A stretch of DNA of 32,000 nucleotides from an uncultured bacterium (GCA_963704705.1 OY969931.1:300001-332000), one strand, 5' to 3'. Shown: positions 1,215 through 29,527, counted from the first letter of the stretch. A program made the numbers and translations. Notes: a model not told the origin generated them from the letters alone.

Positions 1215-1256
1215 TTAGAAAATACATATAAATATAAAAAATTGGAAGTTTATAAT

Positions 1257-2108
1257 ATGTCAAAAATCGGGATACTTGCAGTTTCTATTTTATTGGCATT
1301 TGTACCAATAATAATGTGGGGATGGCACTTTTTGAAAAAACATTCCGAAGTACGCAGAATGGTGATTTTGACTTTCATTGCGGGTGCTTTGTCTGTTACT
1401 CCGCTATTATTATATAAATTTTTGTGGAATTTCTTTCCATGGATTAATGCCTTTATTTGGACCAGAAATTTAAATGTGGATATTATTGGTTTATCTTCTG
1501 TCATGATTGTTCCTTTATCTGTTTTGGTAACTTTTTTATTGGTTGGTGTAATTGAAGAAGTTTCCAAGATTTCAGCAGTTAAATTCATGGATAAAGATAA
1601 ATTCAGAAATGTTGATGATGCTATTGAATTCGCGATTATAGCCGGACTTGGCTTTGCTTTCATTGAAAATGCGATTTATTTTTACAATATAATAATGAGC
1701 AGAGGTTTTGATGATTTTGTTTTCCCATTTGTGTTCAGATCTCTTTTTTCAACATTTGCTCATGTAATGTTTAGTGGAATTTTTGGATATTTTTATGGAG
1801 TTGCTCATTTTGCAGATCCGATACTTAAAAAAGAACTGCGTGAAAAACGGCATCCAATATTGCAATTTCTGCATAAATATATGCATATAAAACGCAGAGT
1901 CATGTTTCATGACGAAATGATCCTTGAAGGATTAATTGTCGCTGCAACTCTGCATGGATTTTTTAATATCATCCTTGAAATGGAATGGATATTTGCGATA
2001 GTGCCGTTCCTGTTCGGTGGTTACCTTACTTTGAGTTACTTATTGGAAAAGAAAGAGAATCTTATTAATTTAAAGAGGTTACTTCCTGTTCGAACTAGCG
2101 GCGATTAA
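1257..2108 (+). CDS. PrsW-family intramembrane protease (polytopic membrane protein)
   Basis: Multiple hydrophobic helices plus the motif series IEEVSK, GFAFIENAIYF, FAHVMFSGIFGY and LHGFFN, matching the PrsW pattern EExxK / FxxxE / HxxxxxxG / HxxxN. The ORF track starts at a TTG (1242); the ATG at 1257 (MSKIGILAV...) is the more likely start. Confidence 0.75.
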   Translation: MSKIGILAVSILLAFVPIIMWGWHFLKKHSEVRRMVILTFIAGALSVTPLLLYKFLWNFFPWINAFIWTRNLNVDIIGLSSVMIVPLSVLVTFLLVGVIEEVSKISAVKFMDKDKFRNVDDAIEFAIIAGLGFAFIENAIYFYNIIMSRGFDDFVFPFVFRSLFSTFAHVMFSGIFGYFYGVAHFADPILKKELREKRHPILQFLHKYMHIKRRVMFHDEMILEGLIVAATLHGFFNIILEMEWIFAIVPFLFGGYLTLSYLLEKKENLINLKRLLPVRTSGD

Positions 2109-2876: not shown

Positions 2877-5762
2877 ATGGGATCCGGCAATATTGTTATT
2901 AAAGGCGCAAGAATCCACAATTTAAAAAATATCGATGTAGAGATACCTCGTGACAAACTTGTGGTTGTAACAGGTTTAAGTGGATCAGGCAAGTCATCTT
3001 TGGCTTTTGACACTATTTATGCTGAAGGTCAAAGAAGATATGTTGAAAGCTTATCTACTTATGCCAGACAATTTTTGCAATTAATGGAAAAACCTGATGT
3101 TGATTCAATTGACGGGCTTTCTCCTGCGATTTCTATTGATCAAAAGACAGCGCCCCGAAATCCGCGTTCAACTGTTGGAACAGTAACTGAAATTTTTGAT
3201 TTTTTAAGATTATTATTTGCAAAAGTTGGAACCCCACATTGTCCTAACTGCGGCGATAAAATCAATAGACAGTCGACATCTCAAATTGTCGAAACAATCG
3301 CTAAAATGCCTAAAGATAAACGAATTTTACTGCTTTCTCCTGTAGTCAGAGACAAAAAAGGGCGTCATCAAAAGGTATTTGAGCAAATTAAAAAAGATGG
3401 ATTTGTACGTGTGCGTGTTGATGGGGAAGTAATGAGTGTTTTGAATATCCCTGAACTTGATGAAAATATTAAACATTCAATTGAAATAGTGGTTGATCGT
3501 CTTGTTGTTAAAGATTTTGAGACAAAATATAAAAAATTATCATCAGGACAGAAAATTGAGCTTCCAAATCCTGACAGATCGCGTTTGGCTGATTCGATCG
3601 AGGTCGCCATTAAGGCCGGAAATGGCTTAATGATGGTGGTGGATCATGATTCAGGGAAAATTGATACATATTCTGAATTATTTGCCTGCACAAAATGTAA
3701 TATTAATATTCCTGAGATTTCTCCGCGAACATTCAGTTTTAACAGTCCGCATGGTGCCTGTGAAACTTGTCATGGACTTGGTACAAAGCTTGAAATTGAT
3801 CCTGAACTTGTTTTACCTAATAAAAGTTTAACTTTAGCTGAAGGTGCTATTAATCCATGGAGCGCTACAACATCACATTTAACCTGGTATAACAGAATAC
3901 TTGAGGCAGTTGCTAAAGCCTACAAATTCAGTATGGATGTTCCTGTGGGAGAATTAACCGAAGAGCAGATTGAATTAGTTTTATTTGGAACAGGTGACAG
4001 AAAATATAAGGTTCAAATAGACAGACATGACGAAGGGGCATTTTCAGGTGAATATAACACTACTTTTGAGGGTGTAATCCCGAATCTGGAGAGAAGATAT
4101 CGCGAAACAGACTCGGATTACATTAGAAAAAAGATAGAACACTATATGAGAATTTTAAAATGTCCGGATTGTAAAGGAAATCGGCTTAGACCAGAAGCTT
4201 TATCTGTTTTGATAGGAGAAAAATCAATTATTGAAGTAACAAAACTTTCAGTAAAAGAAGCTCTAAACTTTTTTCAAAATCTGAAATTAACTGAGATGGA
4301 ACAGGAAATCGCCAGACAAATTCTTAAAGAAATTATGAACAGAATTAGCTTTTTGGAAAATGTGGGTTTAAGCTATTTAACCTTAAACAGATCAGCAAAT
4401 ACGCTTTCAGGAGGTGAAGCTCAGAGAATCAGATTAGCAACTCAAATAGGATCGCGCCTCTCAGGCGTTTTATATGTTTTGGATGAACCAAGTATCGGAT
4501 TGCATCAAAACGACAACGATAAGCTAATTAAAACACTCATTTCTCTTCGCGATCTTGGAAATACCGTAATTGTGGTTGAACACGACATAGATACAATGCT
4601 CCATGCGGACTATTTGCTTGATATCGGACCTGGCGCAGGCAAAGAAGGCGGAGAAGTTGTTTCTCAGGGAACACCCGAAGAGGTAATGAAAGACCCTAAT
4701 TCTGTTACCGGCCAGTATTTATCAGGAAAAAAAGAAATTCCGGTTCCGAAAAAAAGACGTAAAGGAAACGGGAAAAAGCTTATAATAAAAGGCGCAAAAC
4801 AGCATAATCTTGATAATTTGGATGTTGAATTGCCTCTTGGTATGTTTATTGGAATTACAGGAGTTTCAGGATCTGGAAAATCTACTTTGATAAACGATAT
4901 TTTGGTAAAAGAAATGTCCAGGGTGATTTATGGTTCAAAACCATTACCAGGAAAGCACAATTCAATCGAGAATATTAAAGAAATCGACAAAATTATTAAT
5001 ATCGATCAATCACCGATTGGCCGAACACCGCGTTCAAATCCCGCAACTTACACAGGTGTTTTCACTGATATTCGTGATTTGTTTGCGCAAACTCCAGAAG
5101 CTAGAATGCGCGGTTATAAAGCAGGCCGATTCAGCTTTAATGTTAAAGGCGGCAGATGTGAAGCATGTGCCGGAGACGGAATGAAAAAGATAGAAATGCA
5201 CTTTTTGCCTGATTTATATGTAACTTGCGATGTTTGTAAGGGAAAAAGATACAATAATGAAGCTTTGGAAGTTAAATATCGAAGTAAAAACATTTCAGAA
5301 ATTTTAGATATGACAGTAAGCGAAGCTTTAGAGTTTTTTCAATCTATTCCTTCAATTAAAACCAAGCTTAAAACTTTAAAAGAAGTTGGACTTGGCTATA
5401 TTCACTTGGGTCAGCCGGCAACTACACTTTCGGGTGGTGAAGCTCAGCGTATAAAATTGGCTTCAGAGCTTTGCAAACGTTCAACTGGCAAAACTTTTTA
5501 TGTTTTGGACGAGCCAACAACTGGTTTGCACTTTGATGATGTGAAAAAGCTTCTCGACGTACTGCAACGGCTTGTAGAAAAGGGAAATACGGTTTTAACA
5601 ATCGAGCATAACCTTGACGTTATTAAATCTGTAGATCATGTGATTGATTTGGGGCCGGAAGGTGGTGATGAAGGCGGCAAAATCATTGCAACAGGTACAC
5701 CTGAAGAAGTCGCTAAGGTTAAAGGTTCATATACAGGGCAGTGGCTTAAGAAGTATTTATAA
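2877..5762 (+). CDS. uvrA: Excinuclease ABC subunit A (UvrA)
   Basis: Two ABC ATPase modules: [28 protein letters not shown] and [15 protein letters not shown] Walker A motifs, two LSGGEAQRI signatures, and zinc-finger CxxC pairs (CPNCG, CTKCN..CETCHG, CPDCKG, CEAC..CDVCKG). The ORF track extends to a TTG at 2805; the ATG at 2877 ([18 protein letters not shown]) matches canonical UvrA N-termini. Confidence 0.97.
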
Positions 5763-5955: not shown

Positions 5956-6240
5956 ATAATAGATGGTCATTTTATCAATAAAATGTCTAATTTTGCTTAA
6001 ATCGCATAAAATTGCGCGAGATTGTGTAAAATTTAATAAAGTTTAATCAAATTGTGTGAAATTAAATTAAACTTGTCAAAATTGTTGAAATATTATTAAA
6101 GTTGTGTTATATATAATAACGCTATTTGAAATTTAGGCAGATTTAATTAGATAGTCTGAAACTTGCTAAAGTTGCGTGAAAATGATAAAATTTTAATAAG
6201 GTTTAATAACCTTTATCAAAATTATATAAAATAAAATAAG
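5951..6240. repeat. 10-bp-phased A/T-tract repeat region with a 30-bp super-period (about 29 consecutive decamers, no indel)
   Basis: Decamers in register: atttaataat, ..., attgcgcgag, attgtgtaaa, atttaataaa, gtttaatcaa, attgtgtgaa, attaaattaa, acttgtcaaa, attgttgaaa, tattattaaa, gttgtgttat, ..., acttgctaaa, gttgcgtgaa, aatgataaaa, ttttaataag, gtttaataac, ctttatcaaa, attatataaa. Most start RTT and end AA(A). TTGYGYRAA-type decamers recur at 6012, 6022, 6052, 6082, 6102 and 6172. The region ends at the GTG start of the HTH gene. Confidence 0.7.
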
Positions 6241-6533
6241 TGGTATCTGAAAAGTTATTAACTACGGAGCAAGTTGCAGGAATATTGCAAGTTCACCCAT
6301 TCACTGTCCTGAAGTATATTAAGACAGGAAAAATTAAAGCGATTAAGCTTGGACGTGTATGGCGAATTAGAGAAAGTGATGTTGAGGGGTTCCTCGAAGA
6401 AAGATCCATGGCTTCTAAAGAACCGAAAGATACACCAACCATATCTCAGAAAACATCAACCGAAATAAAAGAAATTGATTTAGACGAAAACCTTCTGCCA
6501 AACGATAAAAGCGACCATTATATTCTTGAATAG
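6240..6533 (+). CDS. Excisionase/MerR-type helix-turn-helix DNA-binding protein
   Basis: 97 aa with a GTG start. LLTTEQVAGILQVHPFTVLKYIKTGKIKAIKLGRVWRIRESDVEGFLEE matches the excisionase-family HTH pattern (L.t.eeaA..L.vs..tv.r....G.ip..k.G..wri....l..wl). The C-terminal half is acidic and low-complexity. Confidence 0.75.
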   Translation: MVSEKLLTTEQVAGILQVHPFTVLKYIKTGKIKAIKLGRVWRIRESDVEGFLEERSMASKEPKDTPTISQKTSTEIKEIDLDENLLPNDKSDHYILE

Positions 6534-6546
6534 AATAACGCTTACT

Positions 6547-6717
6547 ATGATCTTTAATTGTATTAGTTGCGGTAAGGCCGTTTCGAGCCTTCGTGATGTT
6601 TGCCCTTACTGTAAATCAGACATTACAGAAATAAACGAAAAATTAAACCAGCCTCAAAAAGACGATTTCTTTAAAAGTAAAATTAAAGGAACGATACTAG
6701 CGCTGGTGCAACGTTAA
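6547..6717 (+). CDS. Small zinc-ribbon protein (CxxC-N10-CxxC)
   Basis: MIFNCISCGKAVSSLRDVCPYCKSD... has two CxxC pairs at the N-terminus. The ORF track begins at a TTG (6526) overlapping the HTH gene; the ATG at 6547 is more likely. It is a short ORF with no recognisable family. Confidence 0.45.
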   Translation: MIFNCISCGKAVSSLRDVCPYCKSDITEINEKLNQPQKDDFFKSKIKGTILALVQR

Positions 6718-6847: not shown

Positions 6848-7879
6848 TTATTGGCATTGGCGTTCACTGGATTTTTTAGTGCATGTTTTTAGTTTTGATA
6901 AAGGTTCGAATGTAGCATTTACTATATCGATAATTTCCTGAATTTTTTTGTCATATTCAGATGCCACAGTATCATTGCCTTTTTTATATTTGGCTTCGTA
7001 TTCGGCACGAACAGAGGCTGAATCTATTTTTCTGACATACTCTTCAGAGGTATCAACAATTTTTGATTGAATATCTACAATCGTAGGTTCACCAGAACCT
7101 GATTTTTCACCTTCTTTATATAACTCATTTACTATCTGATCAGGGGTTTTGATAGAAGGAATGTTATTTAAACGCATATTTTCAATTCCTTTAACAAAGC
7201 CCTCCATTGCTTTACTTGGAGTTGAAATAGCTTTGCCCCAGTTATCTTTAACTGATTTAGCCTGATCTCCCAGAGATTTGATGTTTTTTACAAAACTGTC
7301 CCATTTTTTCTTTAGTTCTTCAAAATCCGCATCTTTGCATTGACCATATCTGGCTCCGATTTTATCTTTGTATTTTGCTTTGAATTTATCGAATAAAGTT
7401 TTTAATTCCTCATCAGTGAAATCAGTATTATCTAAAACAAATGCCGATCTCATCATGCTATATACTTTTTCATCCGGAATTGTCTGAATTTCACTAACCG
7501 GAATATCAATAAAGTTTCTGACATAGAATAGCTCAGCCTTTGTTTCATTATATTTTACTTCCAGTGTTACTCCCTGCTCTGCATTACACTTTAAGAATGC
7601 GTCTTTTATTTGTTTGCTGATTGCATCAAGCTGTTTGATTAATTGGCTAATATCATTGTAATGACAGATATTCTTGCTGTATCTGTCGAATAAATCCTTC
7701 CAATACTCTGAAAAATCATTATACGAAAGCTGGGAGGTAACAAAGTTCTGCCAATTATCAAAACAGGTTTGATTTACTTCAAGGTTTTCCAGGTTATCGC
7801 CGTAGGCAGGGGAGATTGTTAGCCCAATTAAGGCTAATGCAAGTATTGATGTCCAAATTTTAGTGAATAGATTTTTCAT
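6848..7879 (-). CDS. Secreted hypothetical protein, helical, C-terminal ...ERQCQ (cassette gene 4)
   Basis: 343 aa with a Sec-type signal peptide MKNLFTKIWTSILALALIGLTISPAYG|D. The sequence is K/E/D-rich and heptad-like, with several Cys including the penultimate residue. Its start lies 7 nt after the stop of the upstream gene. Confidence 0.75.
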   Translation of the reverse strand: MKNLFTKIWTSILALALIGLTISPAYGDNLENLEVNQTCFDNWQNFVTSQLSYNDFSEYWKDLFDRYSKNICHYNDISQLIKQLDAISKQIKDAFLKCNAEQGVTLEVKYNETKAELFYVRNFIDIPVSEIQTIPDEKVYSMMRSAFVLDNTDFTDEELKTLFDKFKAKYKDKIGARYGQCKDADFEELKKKWDSFVKNIKSLGDQAKSVKDNWGKAISTPSKAMEGFVKGIENMRLNNIPSIKTPDQIVNELYKEGEKSGSGEPTIVDIQSKIVDTSEEYVRKIDSASVRAEYEAKYKKGNDTVASEYDKKIQEIIDIVNATFEPLSKLKTCTKKSSERQCQ

Positions 7880-7886
7880 AAATATG

Positions 7887-9395
7887 TTAAGTACAGTAAG
7901 GAGTATTTGCGAAGTTATTGCAGGCTTCGACCATTTTATCCATTAATTCTTTGATTGATTTAAAATAAATTTTCCATGCATCAAGTTCTTCAATTAAAGT
8001 TTGATATTGTTTGTTTTGAAGTTCGGTTTGCAGAGTTTTAGTACCTGCAACCTGAGACTGAACTGATTCTGCTGTTTTTCCCTGAATTATTTGCGTTGCT
8101 TTATTAATAACCTCCTGAAGAGATCCGTCCGGGCTTGCATTGCTTATAGCTTTACTTGTAGCTCTGTCTTCAACATTTTGATCCGAACCGGTATTAGTGC
8201 CTGTATCAAAATAGTAAGGATTATATTTCTCAAGGAGTGTTTGCCATTCTTTTTCAATATTTAACTTAACGTACATATCGGTATTTGCCTGTTTTGGAGG
8301 AGGAACCGCCATTGTAATAACATTCATATTTGCACCAATATTTGTGAATGAAGACTTACATTTAGGCATTTCAAACAGATTTCCCGAAACTTTGTTTGCT
8401 GTAAGTGGTTTGCTCAGCATCTTATCAAGTTCTTTGTTCATGTTTTGTATATGGCAGAAAATACAATTATCTGTTTTTGAATATACTTTTGAAGCTCCAA
8501 AATCGAATTTTACTTCAATACAGAAGAAAGCCCCATCCGGACATAAATATTTAGCTGGCCAGTCATCAGGCTTTGCCAATGGAAAGCCTGAATCATCAAA
8601 AGTAATACCTGCGTCCTGTTGATTTTCCTGTCCCGCGCCTGCATTTTGTTGATTTTGTTGGTTTTCTTCAAATGCATTTAATGCATTTTCAAGATTATTT
8701 TCATCCGCAAGACAGCTAAGTGCGCTAAATTCATCCTGAATCTCAGTTGTTTGAGTTGGAGTTGTTGATGATGATGGAGTTGTTGTTTGATCTCTACCAA
8801 ATAAGTCGTCGATTACAGCTGCTTCTTCAGGGTCTGTAAAATCAAAATCAGGTGTTTGGAATTTGCCTCCAAACGAGCTTATTGATCCTTCATTAAACAG
8901 AATTACCTCTATTACAGTCAAATCATATAAAATATCAAAGTCTGAGTTTGAAGTATCGCCATCTTTGAATATTTCCGTTGGGCTAACCTTATTAACAAGA
9001 TCACTTCTTAAGTTCTCTGTATCAAGTTTAGTATAATATTCCTGATACATTACTTGATATTTAGTTGTAAGATCCTGGATTCCTTCATCTTTGTTTTTAC
9101 TTAGAATCGGAGATAGATCGCCTTGTGTAATTACTTTATCTACATCATCACTAGATAATTTAAGTTTTTTACCTGCTTCTTTGGCAGCTTTTTTGGCAGG
9201 ATCCACTCCAACTTTTTGATAAATATCCAAATATAAATTCTGAGCAACCGCTTCTTTTGTTGCTTTTTTAGCTTGTGTAATTAATTCATCAATACTTGCA
9301 GGGTTTGAATTGCTTGCAGCATAAGTTGTACTTAGTGCAGCTCCTGCAATAAATAATGTTATAAAAGCCAATATGTAGATAATGATTTTTTTCAT
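7887..9395 (-). CDS. Secreted hypothetical protein with T/S/P and N/Q linkers and a Cys-rich core, C-terminal ...TPYCT (cassette gene 3)
   Basis: Signal peptide MKKIIIYILAFITLFIAGAALSTTYA|A starting at the ATG at 9395 (the ORF track start at 9410 adds MYLVT and would overlap the upstream gene). Low-complexity TTTPSSSTTPTQTTE and ENQQNQQNAGAGQENQQ linkers. Cys cluster CPDGAFFCIEV...NCIFCHIQ. Penultimate Cys. Confidence 0.75.
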   Translation of the reverse strand: MKKIIIYILAFITLFIAGAALSTTYAASNSNPASIDELITQAKKATKEAVAQNLYLDIYQKVGVDPAKKAAKEAGKKLKLSSDDVDKVITQGDLSPILSKNKDEGIQDLTTKYQVMYQEYYTKLDTENLRSDLVNKVSPTEIFKDGDTSNSDFDILYDLTVIEVILFNEGSISSFGGKFQTPDFDFTDPEEAAVIDDLFGRDQTTTPSSSTTPTQTTEIQDEFSALSCLADENNLENALNAFEENQQNQQNAGAGQENQQDAGITFDDSGFPLAKPDDWPAKYLCPDGAFFCIEVKFDFGASKVYSKTDNCIFCHIQNMNKELDKMLSKPLTANKVSGNLFEMPKCKSSFTNIGANMNVITMAVPPPKQANTDMYVKLNIEKEWQTLLEKYNPYYFDTGTNTGSDQNVEDRATSKAISNASPDGSLQEVINKATQIIQGKTAESVQSQVAGTKTLQTELQNKQYQTLIEELDAWKIYFKSIKELMDKMVEACNNFANTPYCT

Positions 9396-9400
9396 AGTTA

Positions 9401-10021
9401 CTAAGTACATTTAGCGGTTGTGGCATCAACGAATTTAGACGGAAGCTTTTCAATCTCCTGTCTTAATTCGGATAGCTTTTTGTTATATTTTGTTAAAGCT
9501 TCAATTAATTTTTCAAATTTTTCGTGCATTCTATAGGTAGGCAGGATTTCATTGTAAGTATCCAAAGCCATATCTAATGCCTTTTTGGCTTGCGTTAACT
9601 CATTATCAATAGTTAAAGTCTGGCTTGCAGATAAAATCCCGATCTTTGCTAAACCTTCTTCCTGTCCCATTGAAACTGTTTGTTTTCTTTTTCTTAGTGC
9701 TTCCGCGTATTTTTCATATTCGTCGGCAACTGCTATTGAAAGACAGAATGTTGAGTAATTGTTCTCGCTGCATTCGTCTGCCGTAGGTATTTTTGTTGTA
9801 CCAGAACCTTTATCTCCTTGTTTTAACAATTTTAGTTTTGAATTGAATATGTCATTTATTCGTTTATGGTAAAGCACTTTAACTTCTTCGAAAGTTAATT
9901 GTTCTTTGTCGTATTGATTAATTGTTGCTGCCTGAAGCGTTCCGTAGAACAATCCTGATGCCAAAATTAATACTGCAAGTACGAGTGTAAGTCCGAATTT
10001 TATTTTTTGTTTTTGTATCAT
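9401..10021 (-). CDS. Secreted or anchored helical hypothetical protein, C-terminal ...TAKCT (cassette gene 2)
   Basis: 206 aa with an N-terminal hydrophobic signal, MIQKQKIKFGLTLVLAVLILASGLFYGTLQA|A, and a coiled-coil-like remainder. The start overlaps the upstream stop as ATGA (10018-10021). Penultimate Cys. Confidence 0.75.
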   Translation of the reverse strand: MIQKQKIKFGLTLVLAVLILASGLFYGTLQAATINQYDKEQLTFEEVKVLYHKRINDIFNSKLKLLKQGDKGSGTTKIPTADECSENNYSTFCLSIAVADEYEKYAEALRKRKQTVSMGQEEGLAKIGILSASQTLTIDNELTQAKKALDMALDTYNEILPTYRMHEKFEKLIEALTKYNKKLSELRQEIEKLPSKFVDATTAKCT

Positions 10022-10551
10022 ACGCAGTTTTTAATAAAACAAGGTACGCGGCCTTTTAATGTTAGCCATTTACCATAAAGCTGCATAACAGCTTTAAACA
10101 TTTCATCCATTTTTTTATTTATTGCTTTAAGTTTTTCCATTACTGCTGAAGTTGTTTTTACGTTTGAAGTCTGTTCAAAATAACTCCTTAATTGTTTTTC
10201 CATAAGGTTAATTTCGCTGGTTACCATCTGGCTGCATTTAAGTTTTTGTGCAGCTGTTCCAAAAAGTTCAAAATTGTCTTCAGGTAAATATTCATTATAT
10301 TTTTGATAAAGATCTTTTTTATATACATCGAATCTCTTTAAAGCCAAATCAAGCAAAGAAGAATTAGTTTTTTTGCTTTGAAAATGTTCCTGCATATAAG
10401 TTCTCATTTCCGCGCTTTTCTGCTCAAGGAAAGGTTTCATGTTTGCTACACAATTATTGTCGGCATCCGCTGCAAAAGCAGTTGGAAGTCCTCCCGCAAA
10501 AATCGAGAAACTTATTAATATTGCCAATATTTTTTTAAGTTTATGGTTCAT
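10018..10551 (-). CDS. Secreted helical hypothetical protein, C-terminal ...IKNCV (cassette gene 1)
   Basis: 177 aa with signal peptide MNHKLKKILAILISFSIFAGGLPTAFA|A and a helical K/E-rich body. Its ATG (10549-10551) lies inside the last codons of the giant ORF (11-nt overlap in a different frame). Penultimate Cys. Confidence 0.75.
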   Translation of the reverse strand: MNHKLKKILAILISFSIFAGGLPTAFAADADNNCVANMKPFLEQKSAEMRTYMQEHFQSKKTNSSLLDLALKRFDVYKKDLYQKYNEYLPEDNFELFGTAAQKLKCSQMVTSEINLMEKQLRSYFEQTSNVKTTSAVMEKLKAINKKMDEMFKAVMQLYGKWLTLKGRVPCFIKNCV

Positions 10552-13500
10552 ATTTAAAGGTTAATTCGTTACTTTTTGAGAAAATCGTAGACAAGTCGCC
10601 ATTCGCAATAACAGCAAACAGAATGTCGCCTATAATTAAATCCGCCTTATGATCAAGCGCAGAAAGACATGGACATGAATTGCAATCATTCTCGACAACA
10701 TACACTCCTTCATCTAAATTCTGTCTTGGATCAAAGCCTCCTTCTTCTATTCTTCCAGTTGTAATAAGCTCGTCATCCTGAGGATAGTCCACAGGATTTG
10801 TTCCTCGTTCAACTTCAACACCATCATATGTGCCTCCATCATCAGTGTCAGGATCAAAAGGATCGGTTCCGAATCTGTATTCATCCAAATTACTTAAGCC
10901 GTCTCCATCAGGATCAAGTCCCGCATCATTTGGATCATTCGGATCAAGACCATTTTGAATTTCCCATATATCCGGCATTCCATCACCATCAGTATCGATT
11001 ATGTAACAATCAAACGCCTGCAGTACTCTGTCCGCTATTGCTGCGAACTCAGCACGTGTTAATAATTTATTAGGCTGCGAAGCTTCACTTGGAGTGAGAA
11101 TATAAGTTTCTTTTACCTCGCTTTCTTTAAGAAGGCGAGGGGATATATCAACCGCAATATTCATATATGGAACATACCATGCCTGATCTTTTGAAGGCTG
11201 AACATCAGCCAGGCTTATTATTCCCTGTTTTTCAAGAGCTTCCAAAACAATCTTTACTGCTTCAGCTCTTGTAATTGTTGCTTCCGGTTTATAAGGGTTC
11301 AAACCTGATTCCTGGTCGATCTCACCAACATAACCTGTAACAAAGCCCTGTAATGTAGCTTCTTTAATAACAGGATAATAATAATTATTCTCATCAAACG
11401 GCATGTCAGAATAAAGATTAGGTTCTTCATGTGCTTCCGGCCTAGGAATAATACAAAGCATTTTCAGGATAATATCAGCAAAATCTTTTCTTGCAATAAA
11501 TTTGTCAGGATTAAAATCATATTTACCGTCAACTATTTCTCCCATTAAAATATTTTTTTGTGAAAGATTTACAATTGAATCATAATAAGGGTGATCTTCA
11601 GGTACGTCATCAAATGGCGAGCCAGCAGCTTTATTTGGATTTTTACCCCAGCTGACTTCATCACCGTCACTAAATCCATCACCGTCAGTATCAGGATTAA
11701 GGGGATTAATTCCAAGCCTGAATTCTTCTAGATTTGAAAGTCCGTCTCCATCAGAATCCAAGTTGGCATCATCTGGATTTCGCGCATCAAAGCCGTATTG
11801 CAATTCAAAATTATCACTCATTCCATCACCATCAAGATCGCTTGTACTAATTTCTTTAGGAAGACCGATTTGATCCCGACTCACAATTTCCGCTTGTTTG
11901 CCGTTATTAATTGAGATAAATACTTCCGCGATAACATTTGAATCATAAAGCATTTCAATTACAAGGGGTTCGTTTGTGTCAGTTACAGGTTTAAGTCTTA
12001 AATCAAGTTTATCATCAAAGAAGTAAATGTTTCCGCCTGAATCAACAATTGAAACTCTCGAATCAGAGCTTGTATCTCTTATTTCCGCACCACCGGTAAA
12101 GTTGGGATCGTCAGCAGGCAGACTGCTAATTTCAAATTGATCGTTTGGATTTGTATCTTTAATATGTGTACCTTCAAGTTCGAATATTGAACCAATATCA
12201 AAATTAAAATCGCTATTGTGAATTGTTACATCAGTATTTAAATCAGGAATCAGCAAAACAGTGGTCATTATTTCGTTTGTTGATTTTTCAATTACAACCA
12301 TTCTGGTTGGCATACTTGGGAATGTTGCTTCATAAACATCCACATAATAATTTTCATCTAGAATTATTATTCTTCCGGTATATGTATCGATTTCAGCTAC
12401 AACCTTGCCATCAACATTTTTAACTAAAATCGCATCATTGTAATTTAAGCCGTCAACTCTGAAATTACCTTCTTCGTCAGTTGTCGTTTCTGCAATCTTA
12501 CTGACTGCACCATCACGTTTTCTAACAAGAGTAATTGGAATATCCTGTGCCACAGGATCAATTGAACCAGTAATTAATTCGCTTGTAGCTGATGATTCAT
12601 TAAGAGTGATATCAGGCGCAACAACTTCAATGTTAATTATTTGTTTACCGATATTTCCTGATTCATCCACTGCATTAAGACCATATTGAACAGTACCGAG
12701 TTTTTCAAAAGGACCGATCAGAAATATTGGGTGACTCGGGATTGAATTCATGTAGTCGTTATCATTTGCCGGATCACCATCGTTATCTGAATCTTCTTTA
12801 ATATTTGTATCAATATAGAATTGTTTAATTTTTCCGTTTGTATCAAAAGATTTTGAAGCATCCAGCCGTAACGTCTGCATAACAATCACCTGTTTATCGG
12901 ATGGGCCGGCTTCCACAAATGGCTTTTGATCATCAGAACAAATCTGAGGTGCAAATATTTTTGTTTCAGTTGGATTGCCTTTTTTGCCATTATTGCCGAT
13001 CGCATATATTTGAGAATAATAATTTCCTTCTTCTGATTGAAGGTTAATAAATGGATTGTTCGGATCAGTAAGTTCAATTATTTTAAGCGAATCTTCAGGT
13101 CCGAGAATTGTTTTCGCACCATTAGCAAAAGTGATTTCCATTGTTCCGCTTTGCATTTGAATTGTTTCATTGAACTGTAAAAGCATTCCTCGTTCAGCTG
13201 ATGTTTCGTTTATAAGTTCATCAGTCGGAGTAATAAGTTCAACTTTTCCGCTTGTAACCTGGATTTCAATATCGTCTGTGTATTTTTGTGAAACCGGTAT
13301 TGTTCTGTTTGCGGATATTTCAAGATTTTGCTGAACTCCTTCTTCAGGGTAAATTATCATTTTCGAGTCTTCCATTGTATGAATTATCTGTCCTTTTTGT
13401 AGAATTTGTCTGCCTGAACCTGAATTTAGGATTTGTCTGGACATGCCTTTTAATGTCGCTTGTCCACTGAAATTTGATATATACGCAAGTCCGTCAGCTA

Positions 13501-16500
13501 CTGTTGATCCAAAGAAATATGAATTTTTAAGCGGTTCAACTGTGTCTCCATTTTTAAATATCATTTTTACATCGGCGTCTTCGTTTATTGTGCTTGAATT
13601 TTCCTGTAAAAACATATTGGTAAAGAAGTTGCTTCTGAATTCCGCGCGCCCCGTAACTACTGTGACTTCAAAGTCACCCGGTGTATAGTCAGGTAACTTA
13701 ATAATTGTATCAGGTCCAAGGAATATCTGGCTCGAATCAGAGAAACTGATTGCAACTTGAGTATTAGGATCCGAACCTGTTTCTATTGAATCTCCGAAAT
13801 TATAAAGTTCCGATGATTCACCATTAACAGTATAAGTTCCTTCCACAGCTGTAATCTCGAGGTCTTGTTTAATTCTACCTACCGTAATAGTTTGTTCTTT
13901 GTTTTCAATAACAACAATTTTATCCGAAGGGGTATAATCAGTTGAATCAAAATCAGCCAGGCTATCTTTATTAACAATCTCATAACCGGATATAGAACCT
14001 TCACTTAAGCCCTGCCAGTCAAAGTCACCTTCGGTTCCCACATCATAAGTAACATTGTAATTATTTACTGTTGGAGCCTCCGGAATATAATCATCTAAAT
14101 TTGCCACTTTTGCATTTTGTGAATTGTACTTAACAAATTCACTTGCAGGAGGTTTAGTGTAATTTTCTTTTAAATATACATTTCCGCCATAAGAATAAAT
14201 AATATCTTCATCTTCGTCTTTATCAATATCAGCAATAATTGAATTGTTTGGAAGACCAATCTCGCCTTCATACATTAGGATTCTTTCATTTACTCCTGTT
14301 GCAGGATTAAAGACATACAATCCTGTAAGTTCTGTTTGTCCGTCAGGATTTGTCACCTGCTCTTCACTAATTACATTTGGAGAAATAGCATTTGTATTTA
14401 AAGCTATAAGTCTCGCTGTATTTTTTATTCCTTCAAAAGATTCACTTTCGGTTTTCTTTTTAATGCTTAACGGTACAGGCTCAGCTGAAGCGGTTTGTCT
14501 TGTTTTAATATAATCATTTAATCTCGGAGCATTATCTGCAAGTGCAACTAAGCGGTCATAATCTTCTCCAACCGACTGACTGAATAATTGGTCGCTATCA
14601 GTATATGCAATTAATGCATCGCGTAAATTAGTATGATAATTAGTTGCCATTTCCGGAGGAAGATCTTCATTTTCAATGGAAGTTTTAATTTCTTCATAAG
14701 AACTATTTAAAGCATCTGGATTAATATAACTTTGTGTTGCGACAAGTTTAATCGGGTCAGGATTATAAGCCTGCGGACTTGGAATTTCAGGTACGGCAGG
14801 CACTTCTGGTATTGATGGGATCTCAGGAGTAGGTATTTCTATTTCTGAAATAGCCTGAGAAATTTCAGCGGAAACTTTACTCAAATCAGTTGCAATGCCA
14901 TTCCACGCTTTTGCAACTTCTTCGATCGACTTATAAATTGAATCTGTTTCGAGCCTTAAATCAACCTTTAGGTTTAATTTGATTTTATCAATCGAAGGAA
15001 TATTAACTGCGGGAGATTGTACGCTGAACAATGTATCTATTGGCAAAGACGTACTGCTTGAACGCGCTGTAGCAGCTTCTATATGCGATTTCAAATTTGA
15101 AACAGGAATTGGCAGTAAGTTTTTTTTCAATAAACACATTATTTTAATTGCAACTGAAAGACCATCCAAAGCAGTATCTATATTTGATGAAAGCTCAGGA
15201 ATTTTTGGCGGATCAGGTAAGTCAGGCAATTGTGGCAAAGGCATTGGCGGCAAGTCAGGCAATTCAGGGAATTCTGGAATCTCAGGTAGTTCAGGAATTG
15301 AAACACTTAACACCGAAGAAGCATTTTTAATAATATCCAGATTTTGTTCAATTTGTTTTAAAATATTTTCAACTTCTGGTGGCAGTGGAACACCCGGCTG
15401 AGTCGGCAATTGCGGAAGCGTTGGGAAGGTCGGCAATTGGAAATCAGGCAATTTTGGCATTATTATTTGTTCCTTTTTAAACTGAATATCAGGAAGCACA
15501 ACTTTTAATCCAAGTTGAATCTGAGAGAAGTCAAAATGGAAATCCGGCCACTTAGGAAATTGAATTATAGGTGGCTGTGGTATTGCGCCGGTGAACAATT
15601 GCGCAAGCAGCTGCATCAAACTGTATCTTTCAGTTTTACAGCTATCGCAAGTCTTCATATAGTCGGACATGAGTTTACTAATTTTTTGCCATGTTTTAAG
15701 CAGATTTTTTATGTCTAAAGTAACCTTTTGCCATCCATTAATTTTGCTGACCTGTTTTTTAAAGTATCCGCCCATGTAAGTAACAATAGTGTCGAGGTAG
15801 CAAATTAATTGTTTAATGTATTTTGTTTTAACATTTTTCCATTCCAGAATTTTAGCCGGTAGTTTTTTATATTCTTCTAAAAGCTTAAGATTTTTTTCAA
15901 CGCTTGCGATTGGTTTTTCGATTGAAGCAAACGCAGACAAACATTTATTTTTTAATTCAGGCTTAAGATCACACGGTATTTTTAATTGAACTTTTAATTG
16001 TTGTAATTGAATTTTCGCTTTAGCCAGCCAGTTTTGAAGTTCCGCCTGTAATTTTGGAATTTCTGCTGCAGATAAAGCAGGTATTTTCATTTGAATTGAT
16101 TTGACTTCAAGATCAATTAAAGGAAGTTTATTCACATATGTAAGAACATCCTGGAATGTTTTAAAGTTAGCTGTAGGAGGAGTTTCAGAAACAAATGAAC
16201 TTGGGTTCGGATAATAAACATATAAATCAGGCAGATCCGATAATTTAACCATAATTTCCTCAATCTGTTTTGCGAACCAATCCGTTATAACGCCAGGGAA
16301 GCCAGGTACTTTTTTATTTGTATTTGAAGAACCACTCGGTTTATATCCGCCAAGCAAAGAGGTCCCGGTTAATCCGCCATTGCCTTCTCTTGGATTAATT
16401 GAGCCTGAACTGCCTCCACCGCCGCTCAATAAACTTGTACCGCTTGCTGAACTTATTACATTAGTTGCTTTAGCCATTGCGCTTTCAAAAGCTTCTGAAA

Positions 16501-19500
16501 TGGCTTGGCAGGCTTCAGGAGGAAGTAAAGGAATAATTAGACTCCAACATTGACCAGCAATACAAACCGAATTAGCAAGATGAGCAGTAAGAGTTGGACT
16601 TAAATAAATTGTAACAGGTCCATAAACAAATACTGGGGTTCCCGGGTCAGCTCCAGCCGGTGTTCCCATAACATTTATAGGTCCCGGAGCCAAGAATGCC
16701 ATATTAATTGGAGTTGGAATACAGCCTCCTTTACAACTGAATGTATCAATTATTTTGCTTATTTCATCAGCTACATTATCAACAGCCCCATTTACTTCAT
16801 CCCAGGCATTTGGTACACCATCACCATCTGCATCACCTTCATTAAGATCTTTAGCCATATCTTCGATTTCACTTGGCAGACTATCTGCAATACCATCACC
16901 ATTTGCATCTTCAATTCCAAAAGGTAAATCAGGTTTCTGTGCTTGTGCAGGGTCAGTTACATACCTGCTATAGCTCATTCTGCCTGTTTCCTGATCTTTT
17001 GAAACAGAATATAAGAATAAATTTTTACCTGAATTGTTATTTGATGGATTAGCGCTTATATCAAGGAATCCATCTTTAGGGAAGTTAGCGTCAAAATTAG
17101 AATTAAGGTCTAAAGCAATTTCAGGAACATTAATTACATTCATTTCATAAGTTATAAGTCTGCTTTCACCTGAAGGTATTGAAGGGATAGTCACAGCCCA
17201 TGGTCTTAAGCTCATACCAGTATCAATAACCTGAATGTCCTGATTACAATTTATACATTTTAAACTGTCTGGATTAAATTCAAGTGTATCGGTTATAAAA
17301 TCACTTAACATTAAATTATTTATTTCATTCGGACTGTTATTAAACAGAGTTATCGTGTAGACAATTTTATCGCCCATTGCCAGTGTGGATCCGTTTATAT
17401 CAACGGCTTTCTTTGAGCTGTCCGTACTTCCGAAAATTGGATCAGCATCCATATAAATAAATGGAACTTCTTCCTGTGCCGCAAAAACCGCTGGGTCGGC
17501 ACCAAGAGCTTCAAGTTGTGCCTGTGTTGCCGCATCAACAAATTCGTTATTTGAAGCGGATCCGGATTTCATTGTAATAGACTGGAAATTAAAGTCGTCA
17601 TCAAGATATGGAATTTTTTTTCCTTCCGAATCCAATACAAAGTTACCATTCGCATCAATAACATATTCAAGCTCTACTGGCATTCCATCATAATGAATAA
17701 GAACTTCATTTTTGAAATCACTACTGCCATCGATGCTCATTCCAAGGTTTTCTACAATTTGTCCGTTTGTATCAATTACCCCTTCGTTGTTGTAATAAAT
17801 TTTTATATTTCCTGAAAGCTCGGCAAGAACAATATCTACATACCCATCATTGTTCATATCACCGATCTTTATACTTGAGACTTTGTCATCCAAATCAAGA
17901 TCCAAGTGAGTTCTTGTAAAATTGCCTTCGTGATTTTCATATAAATAGAAACAAACTTCATCTCCCACACAAGGATCTTTTGTTGAAACAAGCAAATCAT
18001 CATATCCGTCATTATTAAAGTCGGCCGAGGCAATACTGTAGATGCCATTTGTTATGTCCAGAAGAAGACCTTTATCTTTATAAGGCCTTGCTGAAAGCTG
18101 CCTTTGTAGAAGTCTGACTTCGCCACTTTCGTAGGCCAGAATAATGTCATCAAGACTATCGTTATTGTAATCAGAAAGTACCATTTCCTTTATTGTATCG
18201 TCACCGGAATATAAAGGTTGTCCAATGTCTTTTGTGTAACCTGCTGAAGTAATTTGGTTCTTTAAGCCAAGTCTTACAGTAGGGTCGCCAAGATTAATTC
18301 CAATGTCAGTTGCGTATGGGATGTTAGAAACCCCCACGCTGTTGCCGCCCGCAAAGAATAATGAATGTTTGTTGTCACCATCTAAGCCAACTCCCATTAC
18401 ATCGTTTATTTTTTCGAGTGATGTATACGAGAATCCAGGGGCACTTGAACCAACAACTTTCAAGTTTTTATCGCTTATTAATACACCTTTTGGTTCTTTT
18501 GTTGATGATCCTGCTACTGTTTGAGAAACAATGTAATCATCAGAAAGCTTTTTTACAAAAATTCCATTAGATGTTATCGCAGAATTGATTTTGGCATCAG
18601 TATTTAAGTTTTTCGCATAAATAATTTCAGCGATTTTTTCATCAGCATATAAAACATCAAGCACAAGGAATGAACTTTCAGTATCACTTAATTTAATTTC
18701 CATTAAATTATCAGATACTTTCAATTTCCCTCCGCTTGAGATTCTAAGTCCTTCATTTCCGTTAACAGTTATTCCTGCTGCATCGCTTAGTTCAACAAAT
18801 TTAAACATCTCATCTTCAGTTTGTTTTATTAAATATATTCCTTCCTGCAGCATTTCTGTATTTGCGAAATCAACAATGTTTATTGGCATGCCTCCCGGAT
18901 ATTCATAAGTTACCTCTGCAACATCCTGACCAGTTTCCGGATTGCTTATAATAACGCTATTTGGAGCATTGAAACTTGATTCAAGTGAACTGTCGCCAGT
19001 CATACTTATTCCGCCATTTGCGTCTATTGTAGCCAAAGGCATATTTGGATTTGCGTCCACTGTTAATGCTGTAACAGCCTGAACATTACCTTTAAATAAA
19101 ATTTCTCCTGCCGCATACTTTTCCTGCGTTGGGTCACCAAATGGGCCTCCAAGCATTGTTCCATATAAAGCATCGGGATAATCACCAACAATATCTTCTG
19201 AACTTATTTTAGTAAGCGGATATAAATTTATAGTACCCGAAGTCAGCCCAGGACTTGAGGCCACCAGGTGAACTTCACCTGAAATTCCTTTGCCTGCAAT
19301 TGTAACTTCAGCCTTCCCTTTGTTGACGATTGCAGAAGCATCTGAAGTGATCTCTCCGTATTTCGAAGTTTCATCAGTAATTCTGAATGTTAAAGGTGTT
19401 TGATTGTCGAATTCAACAAAATTTCCATTCATATCATAAATTTTCGCAGTTACTGTAGTGCTGTCGTTGCTTGAATTAAATGTGTCCGAATCTGTTTCCA

Positions 19501-22500
19501 GCTTTATTTCGAAAGGCTGATAAGCAATTGAATAAATTTGTATCAAGCCCGGATCAAGCCCGATTGAAGTCGCGCTAACTTCTTCAATTCCAGATTTTGT
19601 TGTTGATTTAAATGTAATTGTCGCCTCACCATTTTGTAAATCTTTTACTGGATCGGTTGTAAATGCTCCGAGGCTTTCGTCAGCTGCCTTGAATATAATC
19701 TGTTCATTATATCCTGTTAAAATACTGCCGGTTCCATCAACAGCCTGTGCTCTAAGCTGAATAGTGTCTGATCCATTGGCATAAATAAATTCTTTTCCAG
19801 GAATGATTTCAAGTTTAATATCATCGCGAGATGCAACGGTTGTACTCGCAGATAAATTTAAGTCATCTTTATTTAGTGTGGCGTTAATCTCAATATCACC
19901 TTCCAGTTCTGTTGAGAATAAATCCACATTAACAAATCCTTCATAAGTATCAAGCTGTATGCCTTCTTTGTTTTTATCAATATCAGCATTTATATCAAGA
20001 ACTCCGGGACCGCTAATATTTACATCAATATCAAAGAAATCATTATTTACAACATTGTTGTTGATATCATAAAGAGTGATTGTTAATGGTGTTTTTGAAA
20101 GCCCGCCTGTTTTAATTACATTAGAACGCGGAGTGATTTCCATTCGTACAGGTGGCTGAGGCTCTGCAAAAACCTGATGAGGCATTGTTGGCAATGAACC
20201 AGTAACGAGTTTTGCTCCTACATCAATTACTCCGGCATTCGTTGTTGAAGTGATTGTATTAACTGCTGTTCCGTTTTGAACTCGTACTTTTGTTTCACCA
20301 AGCTTAGCATCTGTTGTAGACGTATCTTTTAAAAAGAATTCAATTACACTGTTATTGTCACTTTCTATAATGTCTCCTTTTTCATCAAGTACTTCAGCTG
20401 CAAGGAATAATGTAGACAATCCGTCAGCTGTGAAAGTGTCTATCAAATTCAAAACCTGCTCCTGCACACCTTCTGTGATTATCTGAAAAGCAGTGTCTTT
20501 TTCAATGTTATTGCCAAGCGCCACTATTCCCACTCCAAAAGCCGGATTGCCTGTGTCGTCACCTCCACTTAAAGGGTCGGTGTTCTGAAGCCATACTTCA
20601 TCACCATCTTGAGTACCTCCGCCATCAGTGTCCGGATTTCTCGGATCAGTATCATTGTTATATTCATGAATATTTATAAGTCCATCAGAATCAAAGTCAT
20701 AATATGCATCTGATGAATCAAATTTATCCAAACCATTTGCATCTTCCCATATGTCCGGAATTCCATCTCCATCACTATCCAAAAACGCATCATCAGACGG
20801 ATCAAGTGGATTTTTATTGCTTACAATTTCAGTAAGGTCATCAAGCCCGCCCTGGTCAGTATCAGCTGATGTAATTGAAGTGTTGTATTGGTAAATTTCT
20901 ATGTTATCTGGTAATCCGTCGCCATCCTGATCAAGCTTGTAGCAATCAAACACTTTAGTAATATTTTGTACCATAATCGCAAATTCAGCTCGGGTAATAG
21001 GTGATGTAATATAAGTTTCGAATACATTACTTGGAGAACTCAGCTCATTATCAACCCAATCTTTGAATTCTTCTTCTGAATAAGTATTAAATGGCGCAAG
21101 TGATGGATTGGTTTGTTCAGGATAAATATTTTCGGATTTTGCTTTAAGTACATATCTGTAATACCACGGCTTTCCTGCTTCATAATAATCAAGGCTGTCT
21201 ATTCCTGCGGCTTCAAGGATCACTTTGACCGCTTCAGCACGGCTTATATTGTATTGGGGTTTAAAATATCCGGCATCTTTTCCAGCTGCATAACCTGCTA
21301 CAATTCCTTCATTTTTACCTTCTTTAACACAATATCCAAACTCTTCAGAAATATCCGAATCAGGAAAAGGACTGGGAGCGTAAATAGAATCCACTTTTTG
21401 TTTAGCAGCATCTGAAAATTTAGAGCAATTCACACATGTTATACCAAGAACCATTCTAAGATATTCTTCACGTGTAATTAAATCGTTCGGTCTAATTGTA
21501 TTATTCGCACCTCTCGTGATTACACCTTTAAGTAGGAGGCTGGTAAATGCACTATAAGATGCCTGAACCGGATCCAAATCACTAAATAACTTCGCGTCTT
21601 TTTTAAGTGGATCATATCCGCTTGTAATTTCTTCTCCATCTCCAAAGCCATCTTTATCTGTATCTTTATCGATTCTGTTTGTGCCTATAAATGTTTCTTC
21701 CAAGTCTGTAAGCCCGTCCTGGTCACTGTCATTTTCATGGCTGCTTTGAGCAAAAGCTGTTTTGCTGATTTTTTCAATAAGTTTGCTAAGCAAATCAGGA
21801 AAGTCGCTTGTTACATTAATCTGGCTTTGCCTGTAGCTTATATAAAATTCAGCCAGATCATTTCCGCTGCCGTCTTCAATAATAAAAATATAAGGTTCAT
21901 CAGTTTTATCCGGATTTTTTACTATTATAAAATGTTCATCCGCCACATAAACCTGTCCTTCATCTGTTATTCTTGCGATTCTTTGTGTATATGGTCCGCT
22001 ATTATCAAGAAGATAAATTGAATTATTTAATTCATACGGAATAACATAATCATTAGTTCTGATATCTTTAACATGGATTCCATTTAATGTTAGGGCGTTT
22101 TCTTCAAAGCTAAAATCAGGTTGCTGCAATGTAACAGATTTTTCATCAGGAACAACCATTACAGCCGCAACCAAATTACCTGTTCTGATTTCAATTATAC
22201 CTACACGCAATCTTTTATCTGGTTCTGATTCAAACACTTCTATATCGTAGGCTTCATTTTTAATCGTAATTTTGCCTGTGTCCGGGTCGATTTCCGCAAT
22301 TATTTCACCCGCATCATTTTTAACCACATATCCGTTTAATACTTCCTCTGTAAAAGTAGGAGGTTCAACAGTTTGAAGTTCATAAGTATAAACCCGAATT
22401 TTTCTGGCTTCACTTCGCAAACTTAAAATATTTGAAGTTAATATTGCTGGTCTGTTAACAGACTCAGCTGAAATATTAAATGAGCCAGGCACATCTGTTG

Positions 22501-25630: not shown

Positions 25631-26158
25631 TTATAGGAGTCTCATAAAGTATGTATCTCCTTCACTTGGTTGGGCTGATCCATCAAATGATTCTGGATCA
25701 TCATTAGTATTATTTTTCTTTGGCGTTTCCATTACAGTAGCAATAATATATTCAATTCCATTTTCACCTATACGTTTGTAATAATATTGTCCATTCTCTA
25801 CACAGTCACCTGGATCAGTTACTTCTGTTGATAGACTTCTGTTTGGAGATGGATCTTTTGGAGGAGTTCCACCTTTAAAGTAATCAACAGCAACTGAATC
25901 TGAGCCTCCTGGTTCAATAAATACACCGTCAGCATCACCTGTGAAACAAGCACCAGCACCTAATGCCAATGGGTAAGTACCATAGTCAGAGTTAAATGTT
26001 TCAAGAGCAGTCACTAAATTATTAATATCTCCTTCTCTTGCAGCGTCCCTTCCTCTAGAGAGAGCATCTCTAATAGTCGGGTACAATGAAGCAGCAAGTA
26101 CGCCGATAATCGCAATTACTATAAGTAATTCGATTAGTGTGAAACCTTTTCGTTTCAT
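25631..26158 (-). CDS. Type IV pilin (major pilin candidate)
   Basis: MKRKG|FTLIELLIVIAIIGVLAA is the canonical class III (prepilin peptidase) signal with Gly-1/Phe+1/Glu+5. The globular C-terminal domain has two Cys. The ORF track start at 26185 adds 9 residues; the ATG at 26158 gives the usual short leader. Confidence 0.9.
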   Translation of the reverse strand: MKRKGFTLIELLIVIAIIGVLAASLYPTIRDALSRGRDAAREGDINNLVTALETFNSDYGTYPLALGAGACFTGDADGVFIEPGGSDSVAVDYFKGGTPPKDPSPNRSLSTEVTDPGDCVENGQYYYKRIGENGIEYIIATVMETPKKNNTNDDPESFDGSAQPSEGDTYFMRLL

Positions 26159-26224
26159 GGTTAAATGGTTAAAGTTATATTCCAATTAAACATTATACAA
26201 TATTGAAAAATAAATGCAAAAAAA

Positions 26225-28886: not shown

Positions 28887-28888
28887 AA

Positions 28889-29527
28889 TTATTGTTCCGA
28901 AGTTACCGATCTAAAATACGCATTCATGGAAGCGTTGAAGTTTATTTCATCCTGTCCGCTTGTATTGCCAATTGATCCGCTAGGACTTATAAAGTTTATT
29001 GTTATAGTTGTTATTTCAATTAATCTGTTTTTTTCGCTTAAGGTTCCGCTGTTTTCAACAAACTCAAGAAATTTAAAGAAATTATCATAAGAGCTGTGAA
29101 TTGTCATTTTAAATGGCATCACAGAATAATCCTCACCTTCAACTTTTTCTGATTTCAAATACTGCAAATTGTTTATAATAAAAGGATTTTTTATTCTATG
29201 AATATCATTAGCAAATTGTTCCAATGTTCTGGTCAATTTTGTATGGCTTTCATTTTCAGGAAAAACCAGTTCAAGCTCTGTTTGTATTGTTTGATTTAAT
29301 TGTTGAATTCCCTCCTGTTCATTTGCCAATTCAGTTGAAATTATTTCTTCATTATTTTCCAGGTTATTAAAAATTTCAATGTTAGACTGTGTTTCAGCGC
29401 GAACATCAATAAATTTCAAAACATTGTTGAATGTAAAATATCCAACAATTCCAAACAATAAGACACTTAAGACTACGTAAAGTCTTAATTGAAAATAATC
29501 CGATTTAAAGATTGAAGTTGTGTCCAT
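28889..29527 (-). CDS. PilO-like pilus assembly protein (bitopic)
   Basis: 212 aa with one N-terminal TM helix (LRLYVVLSVLLFGIVGYFTF), a coiled-coil and a C-terminal segment YSVMPFKMTIHSSYDNFFKFLEFVENS...RLIEITTITI resembling the PilO ferredoxin-like domain. The operon position, between the PilN-like gene and pilB, fits this call. Confidence 0.55.
   Translation of the reverse strand: MDTTSIFKSDYFQLRLYVVLSVLLFGIVGYFTFNNVLKFIDVRAETQSNIEIFNNLENNEEIISTELANEQEGIQQLNQTIQTELELVFPENESHTKLTRTLEQFANDIHRIKNPFIINNLQYLKSEKVEGEDYSVMPFKMTIHSSYDNFFKFLEFVENSGTLSEKNRLIEITTITINFISPSGSIGNTSGQDEINFNASMNAYFRSVTSEQ

Follow-up and report, generated by a model that had tools for sequence, protein, structure and literature searches.

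We describe here a four-gene cassette on the minus strand of a 32,000-nucleotide (nt) stretch of DNA from an uncultured bacterium (GCA_963704705.1 OY969931.1:300001-332000; this whole stretch is referred to below as the window). Its products are protein A (177 amino acids [aa]; positions 10018-10551), protein B (206 aa; 9401-10021), protein C (507 aa as listed; 7887-9410), and protein D (343 aa; 6848-7879), each of which has a cysteine as its second-to-last residue. It is probable that three of them, A, C, and D, assemble into a parallel bundle of helices whose C-terminal end is sealed by three disulfides between the chains. This proposal is drawn from the sequences, above all from the manner in which the terminal Cys residues of the three proteins are present or absent together across related loci.

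The penultimate Cys had been pointed out in the first-pass annotation of this DNA, and the four ends read at that time, VPCFIKNCV, DATTAKCT, FANTPYCT, and KKSSERQCQ, are confirmed. Protein A ends in RVPCFIKNCV, B in LPSKFVDATTAKCT (last residues DATTAKCT), C, after a helix of ~70 residues, in EACNNFANTPYCT (last residues CNNFANTPYCT), and D in LKTCTKKSSERQCQ (last residues CTKKSSERQCQ), with the penultimate Cys codons located at 10024-10026, 9407-9409, 7893-7895, and 6854-6856, respectively. The accompanying argument that Cys is too sparse in these proteins for four out of four to be coincidence also holds, as Cys accounts for 21 of the 1,233 residues (1.7%; P, ~8e-8), and none of 44 noncassette open reading frames of ≥150 aa in related loci has a Cys at position -2. 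Among homologues, all 32 close relatives of the 507-aa protein end in C-x8-C-x and all 39 of the 206-aa protein end in C-x; a Cys at position -2 is present in 15 of 17 members of the 177-aa family, the other two ending in CISG, and in 16 of 17 members of the 343-aa family, the remaining one ending in QCKN. The strict -2 position is upheld throughout the B family, but in deeper relatives of A, C, and D, the Cys is found at positions -1 to -5 or is absent, and the tail beyond it drifts between 0 and 4 residues. In A, C, and D, a further conserved Cys lies upstream of the terminal one, at a distance of 4 or 8 residues; it had not been part of the feature as first described.

Relatives of the window proteins are found in metagenome-assembled and single-amplified genomes of Peregrinibacteria, Peribacteria, and Patescibacteria, and the window organism is a Peregrinibacteria-type bacterium from among the candidate phyla radiation (CPR). 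Proteins A, B, C, and D belong to no family in Pfam, NCBIfam, or PHROGs scans, PDB sequence profiles returned only low-complexity helical noise for them, and no relative was detected on viral contigs. In the literature searched, the module and its four families were not found described, the nearest statements being broad comments on CPR surface proteins that are giant or rich in Cys. Directly upstream of A-B-C-D, there is always a gene for a giant exported protein (10541-25435 on the minus strand; 4,964 aa with 30 Cys and SLH, TSP3 [bacterial], FG-GAP, Big_1/invasin, and DUF11 domains), and the order giant-A-B-C-D is kept in 23 of 23 related loci, down to 22-36% identity; four candidate loci from a metagenome scan (L023-L026) proved spurious. 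A profile of the C family retrieved 406 proteins (cluster representatives) from 1.84 billion representatives, 204 of them below 1e-30, and all 12 matches that were traced to contigs, with 22-36% identity to the window proteins, lie in the giant-A-B-C-D arrangement. When the four families were compared with one another by hhalign, only A and the N-terminal region of D matched (probability, 82%), and this region of D may be distantly related to A; the other pairs are unrelated. Since no relationship among the families is detectable apart from this one region, the terminal Cys that they share reflects a common constraint and not a relic of duplication.

Each family was aligned over the 23 loci for the scoring of Cys. 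The core Cys, namely, C34 and C106 in A, C233, C290, C297, C316, C319, and C351 in C, and C39, C72, C98, and C181 in D, are invariant in all 23 loci, as are all three Cys of B, C84, C93, and the terminal C205 (b). The sole variable Cys are the six at the ends of A, C, and D: a1 (C171, codon 10039-10041) and a2 (C176), spaced C-x4-C; c1 (C497, codon 7920-7922) and c2 (C506), spaced C-x8-C; and d1 (C333, codon 6881-6883) and d2 (C342), also spaced C-x8-C. A general loss of Cys in some lineages is ruled out by the invariance of the core. Closure of a helical hairpin through the N-proximal Cys of A and D (DADNNC and NQTC), suggested at first pass, is contradicted as well, since the core Cys of both proteins (C34 and C106 in A and all four in D) are invariant where the terminal Cys have been lost.

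The six variable Cys come and go in pairs that cross protein boundaries. All six are present in the window clade and in the loci L030 and L038 (in the latter, D is cut off). The residues a1 and c2 are jointly missing in L027, L031, and L033, c1 and d1 are jointly missing in L032, both pairs are missing in L028 and L034, and all six are missing in L029 and L037 and also, where readable, in L036; in L035, a1 and c2 are both displaced to new nearby positions. Among the 15 possible ways of matching six residues into three pairs, a1-c2/c1-d1/a2-d2 is the only one free of discordance (0/33), and in keeping with it, A has three Cys exactly where C has seven or D has five. On a quick neighbor-joining tree, the a1/c2 pair changed at least two times in addition to the one joint shift in L035, the c1/d1 pair was lost twice, and the a2/d2 pair was lost once. 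A prediction was set down before L032 was read, namely, that a C protein with c2 only (P0180) should be accompanied by a D protein without d1 and an A protein with both a1 and a2; it held, and the remaining six later loci also fit the scheme. A disulfide tether to another cassette protein, one of several roles that the first-pass annotation had offered for the terminal Cys, is thus supported for A, C, and D, whose cross-protein pairs show no discordance and whose within-chain pairs are each discordant in 3 to 5 lineages; it does not extend to B, which would lie outside the ring. That Cys gained or lost as a pair are how disulfides behave in this system can be seen within the giant protein, which serves as a positive control: positions 4824 and 4853 (window ~10874-10965, minus strand) are W and Y in the window and are both Cys in L027, L028, L031, L032, L034, and L035, so that this within-chain pair is gained or lost as a unit.

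The alternative that survives best, in our estimate still an unlikely one, is that the Cys are stapled within each chain (a1-a2, c1-c2, and d1-d2), which would give a small C-terminal loop, similar to the disulfide loop at the C terminus of type IV pilins, that stabilizes the last helix or guards it against exoproteases. The two Cys at the ends of A, C, and D do lie close together, and the total numbers of Cys in the three proteins are even (4, 8, and 6) in the window and its clade. However, a2 occurs without a1 in five lineages, d2 without d1 in three, c2 without c1 in one, and c1 without c2 in three; the all-within-chain matching is among the worst of the 15 (12/36 discordant); and B has no nearby partner Cys at all. 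The C family as a whole points in the same direction. Among 180 members, c1 and c2 are both present in 100, c1 only in 48, c2 only in 1, and neither in 31, and if the last 16 residues are left out of the count, 174 members have an even number of Cys. The 48 diverse proteins that keep c1 without a partner in their own chain, and with an odd Cys total, indicate that c1 does not depend on c2, which a simple within-chain loop fails to explain.

The helices that precede the terminal Cys are of a kind that could pack against one another. Over the ~35 residues before the Cys region, all four families have conserved hydrophobic residues every 3.4-3.7 residues, a heptad-like period, and the hydrophobic fraction at the a and d positions of this region is 0.49-0.73 versus 0.20-0.27 elsewhere. 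An AlphaFold2 (AF2) model of B (predicted local distance difference test [pLDDT] score, 74.5) is a helical bundle with a helix at residues 124-191 and a low-confidence tail, the last 15 residues (192-206) being unplaced; a Foldseek search of this model against the PDB gave no fold match (best E value, 0.4).

All four proteins start with a signal sequence that is first basic, then hydrophobic, and then of the A-x-A type, and in A, a Sec-type signal peptide precedes a helical protein. The genes are tightly packed: the start of A and the stop of the giant gene overlap by 11 nt, the start of B overlaps the stop of A (ATGA), the probable start of C lies 5 nt after the stop of B, and D starts 7 nt after the end of C. 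The listed start of C (9410) is probably wrong, and the true start is probably its sixth codon (M6, at 9395), because homologues begin at an MKK six codons on and M6, K7, and K8 are invariant; the apparent overlap of C and B (window 9395-9410) then vanishes. Stops and starts thus overlap or nearly abut. In the most likely reading, A, C, and D, probably together with B, are exported subunits whose production keeps pace with that of the giant surface protein. After export from the cytoplasm, A, C, and D would pack in parallel through their heptad-patterned C-terminal helices, and the end of the bundle would be locked covalently by bonds between A and C (C171-C506), C and D (C497-C333), and A and D (C176-C342), with each chain bonded to both others. 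The extreme position of the Cys would be due to the lock, by which a parallel bundle is closed at its end, and not to any role of Cys-X as a signal. The internal Cys (two in A, six in C, four in D, and two in B) would form ordinary within-chain disulfides. Peribacteria genomes have been reported to encode a disulfide bond formation protein and many Cys-rich exported proteins (PMC4736985). The putative ring is an add-on, as whole clades without one, two, or three of the bonds keep the proteins and the gene order, and the complex may serve as a structural partner of the giant protein in a host attachment surface apparatus.

Several points weigh against this arrangement. The bonds are inferred from co-variation and are not observed disulfides. 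The pairing test comprised 13 independent lineages, three of them without the D end, and the scheme was drawn from the first five distant loci, which leaves just seven later ones as its test. For the a2-d2 pair, the support consists of a single evolutionary event and of parity, and with a quick neighbor-joining tree, the number of independent events is approximate. The short contig L022 has a W in place of a1, with the end of its C gene lying off the contig, and is a possible discordant intermediate; the codon in its protein A (L022 247-292) is TGG (Trp) versus TGC (the a1 Cys) in the close relative L018, either a sequencing error or an intermediate caught in passing. The AF2 model of C, in which a helix spans residues 431-501 and ends just before c1, is poor overall (pLDDT score, 50). 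Finally, it is conceivable that the full state holds within-chain loops which re-pair in derived lineages; in that case, the three tails would still have to meet.

That Cys-X-COOH is instead a new C-terminal sorting, processing, or lipid or cell wall attachment signal read by a dedicated enzyme, as had also been considered at first pass, is if anything less likely than staples within the chains. It draws on B, whose Cys is invariant and strictly at position -2 behind a conserved motif, while the tails of A, C, and D drift over the same span, and on a PrsW-family membrane protease that persists in the neighborhood. In A, C, and D, however, the Cys lies at positions -1 to -5 and is absent from whole clades, there is no hydrophobic or basic tail of a known sorting signal kind, no candidate enzyme is encoded inside the operon, and the protease sits among housekeeping genes (uvrA and recF), so that its linkage may be plain synteny. 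The idea of a signal is thus not borne out for A, C, and D, where the Cys is dispensable and neither a hydrophobic nor a charged tail comes after it; for the invariant end of B, it is conceivable. Known C-terminal sorting signals (LPXTG/sortase, PEP-CTERM, GlyGly-CTERM, MYXO-CTERM, and PGF-CTERM) were considered and rejected: the proteins end 1 residue past the Cys (≤4 in relatives), there is no hydrophobic segment after it, and the cassette proteins have no NCBIfam match. A CaaX-type prenylation box, in which a Cys at position -4 of a cytosolic protein precedes two aliphatic residues and X, was likewise rejected, as the window Cys are at position -2 and Sec-type signal peptides are present.

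More improbable is a zinc or iron-sulfur clasp, like the zinc hook of Rad50, in which terminal thiols from several chains hold a metal together instead of forming disulfides. Seven thiols would converge from four chains, and C also contains a CxxC (C316 and C319), but the stepwise loss of thiols from seven to five to three to one in fixed pairs fits bonds between two partners, a four-ligand site would fail after the first loss, and the setting is extracytoplasmic. The least probable of the readings is a tether between the giant protein, at its Cys clusters, and each of the small proteins A, C, and D, at their terminal Cys, as the first-pass annotation had envisaged: the genes invariably adjoin and are closely coupled, and some clusters of the giant are odd in size (DCNSCPC and one at 2901-2976), but within its last 1,550 residues, to which the comparison with distant relatives was confined, none of the Cys columns is present and absent in the pattern of a1/c2, c1/d1, or a2/d2, and the six variable Cys account for one another completely.

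The giant protein does end in TFKYEP and carry the clusters DCNSCPC, SCKGGC, CIAGQC, and TCDSC, as read initially, and the clusters are conserved. In its last 1,550 residues, Cys 4166, 4661, 4810, 4918, 4921, and 4923, which include the DCNSCPC triple, are conserved in 16 of 16 homologues compared. Relaxed scans found no family in the central region. At ~3110-3170 (window ~15930-16110, minus strand), there is a heptad-like helix ending in LKIPC-x9-C (C3155 and C3165), followed by a Pro-rich stretch, PELPEIPEFPELPDLPPMPLPQLPDLPDPP; A and C have ends of a similar form, helix-PC-x(4-8)-C, and the segment could be a docking site of the small proteins.

Protein B requires a separate account of its terminal Cys. 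C205 is present and located exactly at position -2 in each of the 39 homologues and each of the 23 loci, including those without the putative ring, and the motif before it, P-x-[KR]-F-[IV]-D-A-[TS]-[TS]-x-x-C-x, is conserved. It leaves B with an odd Cys count (always three). As it is kept even in ring-less loci, C205 would act outside the A-C-D ring, as a seventh, unpaired thiol that bonds elsewhere. Its partner might be a second B chain, in a homotypic bond like that of C152 in lambda Rz, and we hold this tentative assignment to be about as probable as a thiol that is free or modified in some other way; the giant protein, with its six universal Cys, is a slightly less favored partner. C2905 of the giant protein (in SCKGGC) is Gly in exactly the two relatives, L008 and L010, whose A proteins end in CISG and whose B proteins end in CL. 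These loci have one giant Cys fewer, and the available parts show no change that would compensate for it. With an even number of Cys (30) in the giant protein of the window and C2905 lost in two relatives, parity speaks neither for nor against a bond between B and the giant. It is a doubtful extension that the Cys-X end of B is a covalent docking point which fastens the ringed A-C-D bundle to the giant protein or the envelope, so that the five products would make up one covalently linked surface organelle.

Among known systems, the proposed arrangement of A, C, and D most resembles fibrinogen, in which three different chains form a parallel coiled coil whose end is marked by a disulfide ring (PMC5741905, PMC5713436). 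A, C, and D likewise make up a set of three different chains, all of which have a closely spaced pair of Cys at the same (C-terminal) end, and the heptad-like period of 3.4-3.7 residues and the long AF2 helices of the cassette families would be consistent with such a coiled coil. In the fibrinogen ring, each chain is bonded via two closely spaced Cys to both others; in the cassette, co-variation singles out a1-c2, c1-d1, and a2-d2 as the candidate bonds. In contrast to this likeness, there is no homology in sequence or fold (no Pfam or PDB sequence match and, for B, no Foldseek match), the host is a CPR bacterium, the Cys spacings are x4, x8, and x8 versus x3 in fibrinogen, and the cassette ring would lie at the extreme C terminus and is dispensable in some clades. 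The β and γ chains of laminin provide a further example, in which a heterotrimeric coiled coil is stapled by an interchain disulfide at its C-terminal end; however, laminin belongs to the eukaryotic matrix, has a single bond and no ring, and shares no homology with the cassette proteins. By analogy, the module would work like an end-stapled coiled coil of the fibrinogen/laminin type.

A bacteriophage protein comes closest with regard to the position of the Cys. The lambda i-spanin Rz is a periplasmic coiled coil whose penultimate C152 (the protein ends in EQCR) forms an intermolecular disulfide needed for the function and stability of the complex (PMC5295617). The cassette proteins share with it the near-terminal Cys and the helical character, co-variation suggests an intermolecular role for their Cys, and B has, like Rz, a lone penultimate Cys. 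On the other hand, the Rz bond is homotypic, within a homodimer, and Rz, which retains a membrane anchor at its N terminus, has the lipoprotein Rz1 as its partner; the cassette is chromosomal, located between uvrA/recF and a type IV pilus operon, with no significant PHROGs match and no relative on viral contigs. It is of note that the D family ends in RQC[QKP], close to the EQCR of Rz, and that each is a coiled-coil protein of the envelope whose Cys at this site bonds to another chain, putatively so for D; the likeness of the two ends is probably a coincidence.

Type IV pilins were also compared, as their D-region loop has two Cys near the C terminus of an exported protein and a type IV pilus operon adjoins the cassette. 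However, the pilin loop lies within one chain and pilins carry a G/FxxxE prepilin signal, whereas the signal peptides of the cassette proteins are of the ordinary Sec type, and their terminal Cys do not co-vary within the chain. A prepilin N-terminal motif was found in none of the four cassette proteins and only in a 184-aa protein encoded at 25631-26185. The module thus belongs to none of the sorting signal families, CaaX systems, pilins, or spanins.

The window is AT-rich (~35% GC). On its minus strand, a type IV pilus set (25631-30747) lies downstream of the L10 and L7/L12 ribosomal protein genes and is followed by the giant gene and then by A-B-C-D. The pilus set comprises, in coordinate order and all on the minus strand, the 184-aa type IV pilin (25631-26185), with an N-methylation motif and an N_methyl/TIGR02532 match; PilC (26225-27496) and PilB ATPase (27483-28886), both named from sequence and pilin context rather than from a family scan; a 212-aa, weakly PilO-like protein (28889-29527); and a 406-aa protein (29527-30747). 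On the other side of the cassette, 10 long loci show the same succession of an opposite-strand excisionase-type helix-turn-helix (HTH) gene, uvrA, a PrsW-type protease gene, and recF. The HTH gene of the window (6240-6533, plus strand) is divergent and encodes an excisionase-family protein of 97 aa ending in DHYILE; it adjoins D in every locus that reaches far enough and is a possible regulator of the operon. It is overlapped, in the window and in L001, by a small open reading frame (6526-6717, plus strand) with two CxxC pairs in a zinc-ribbon-like pattern. The PrsW-family intramembrane protease of the window (1242-2108, plus strand; NCBIfam NF033739; E value, 4.6e-12) has counterparts in L031 (12685-13533), L037 (12865-13701), and other loci and stays within a few kilobases of the cassette, near uvrA and recF, even in ~25%-identical loci. 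This linkage may be plain housekeeping synteny, or the protease may act on the exported proteins.

In summary, here we define a module of a giant SLH/TSP3/FG-GAP protein and four orphan helical proteins, a conserved five-gene set for which a testable covalent architecture is proposed. If the ring is real, a known structural device would occur in hetero-oligomeric form in new protein families, within an unstudied surface module of CPR bacteria, and we know of no other hetero-oligomeric disulfide-ring coiled coil in bacteria. The approach is of wider use, as the gain and loss of Cys across neighboring genes can show which proteins touch, and where, when structure prediction fails. Much of bacterial diversity is accounted for by CPR bacteria/Patescibacteria, which presumably live attached to other cells, and the parts of their attachment surfaces are almost unknown. 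Should B indeed dock the bundle to the giant protein or the envelope, the assembly would be a surface organelle of these bacteria, possibly a host contact device that stands beside the type IV pilus.

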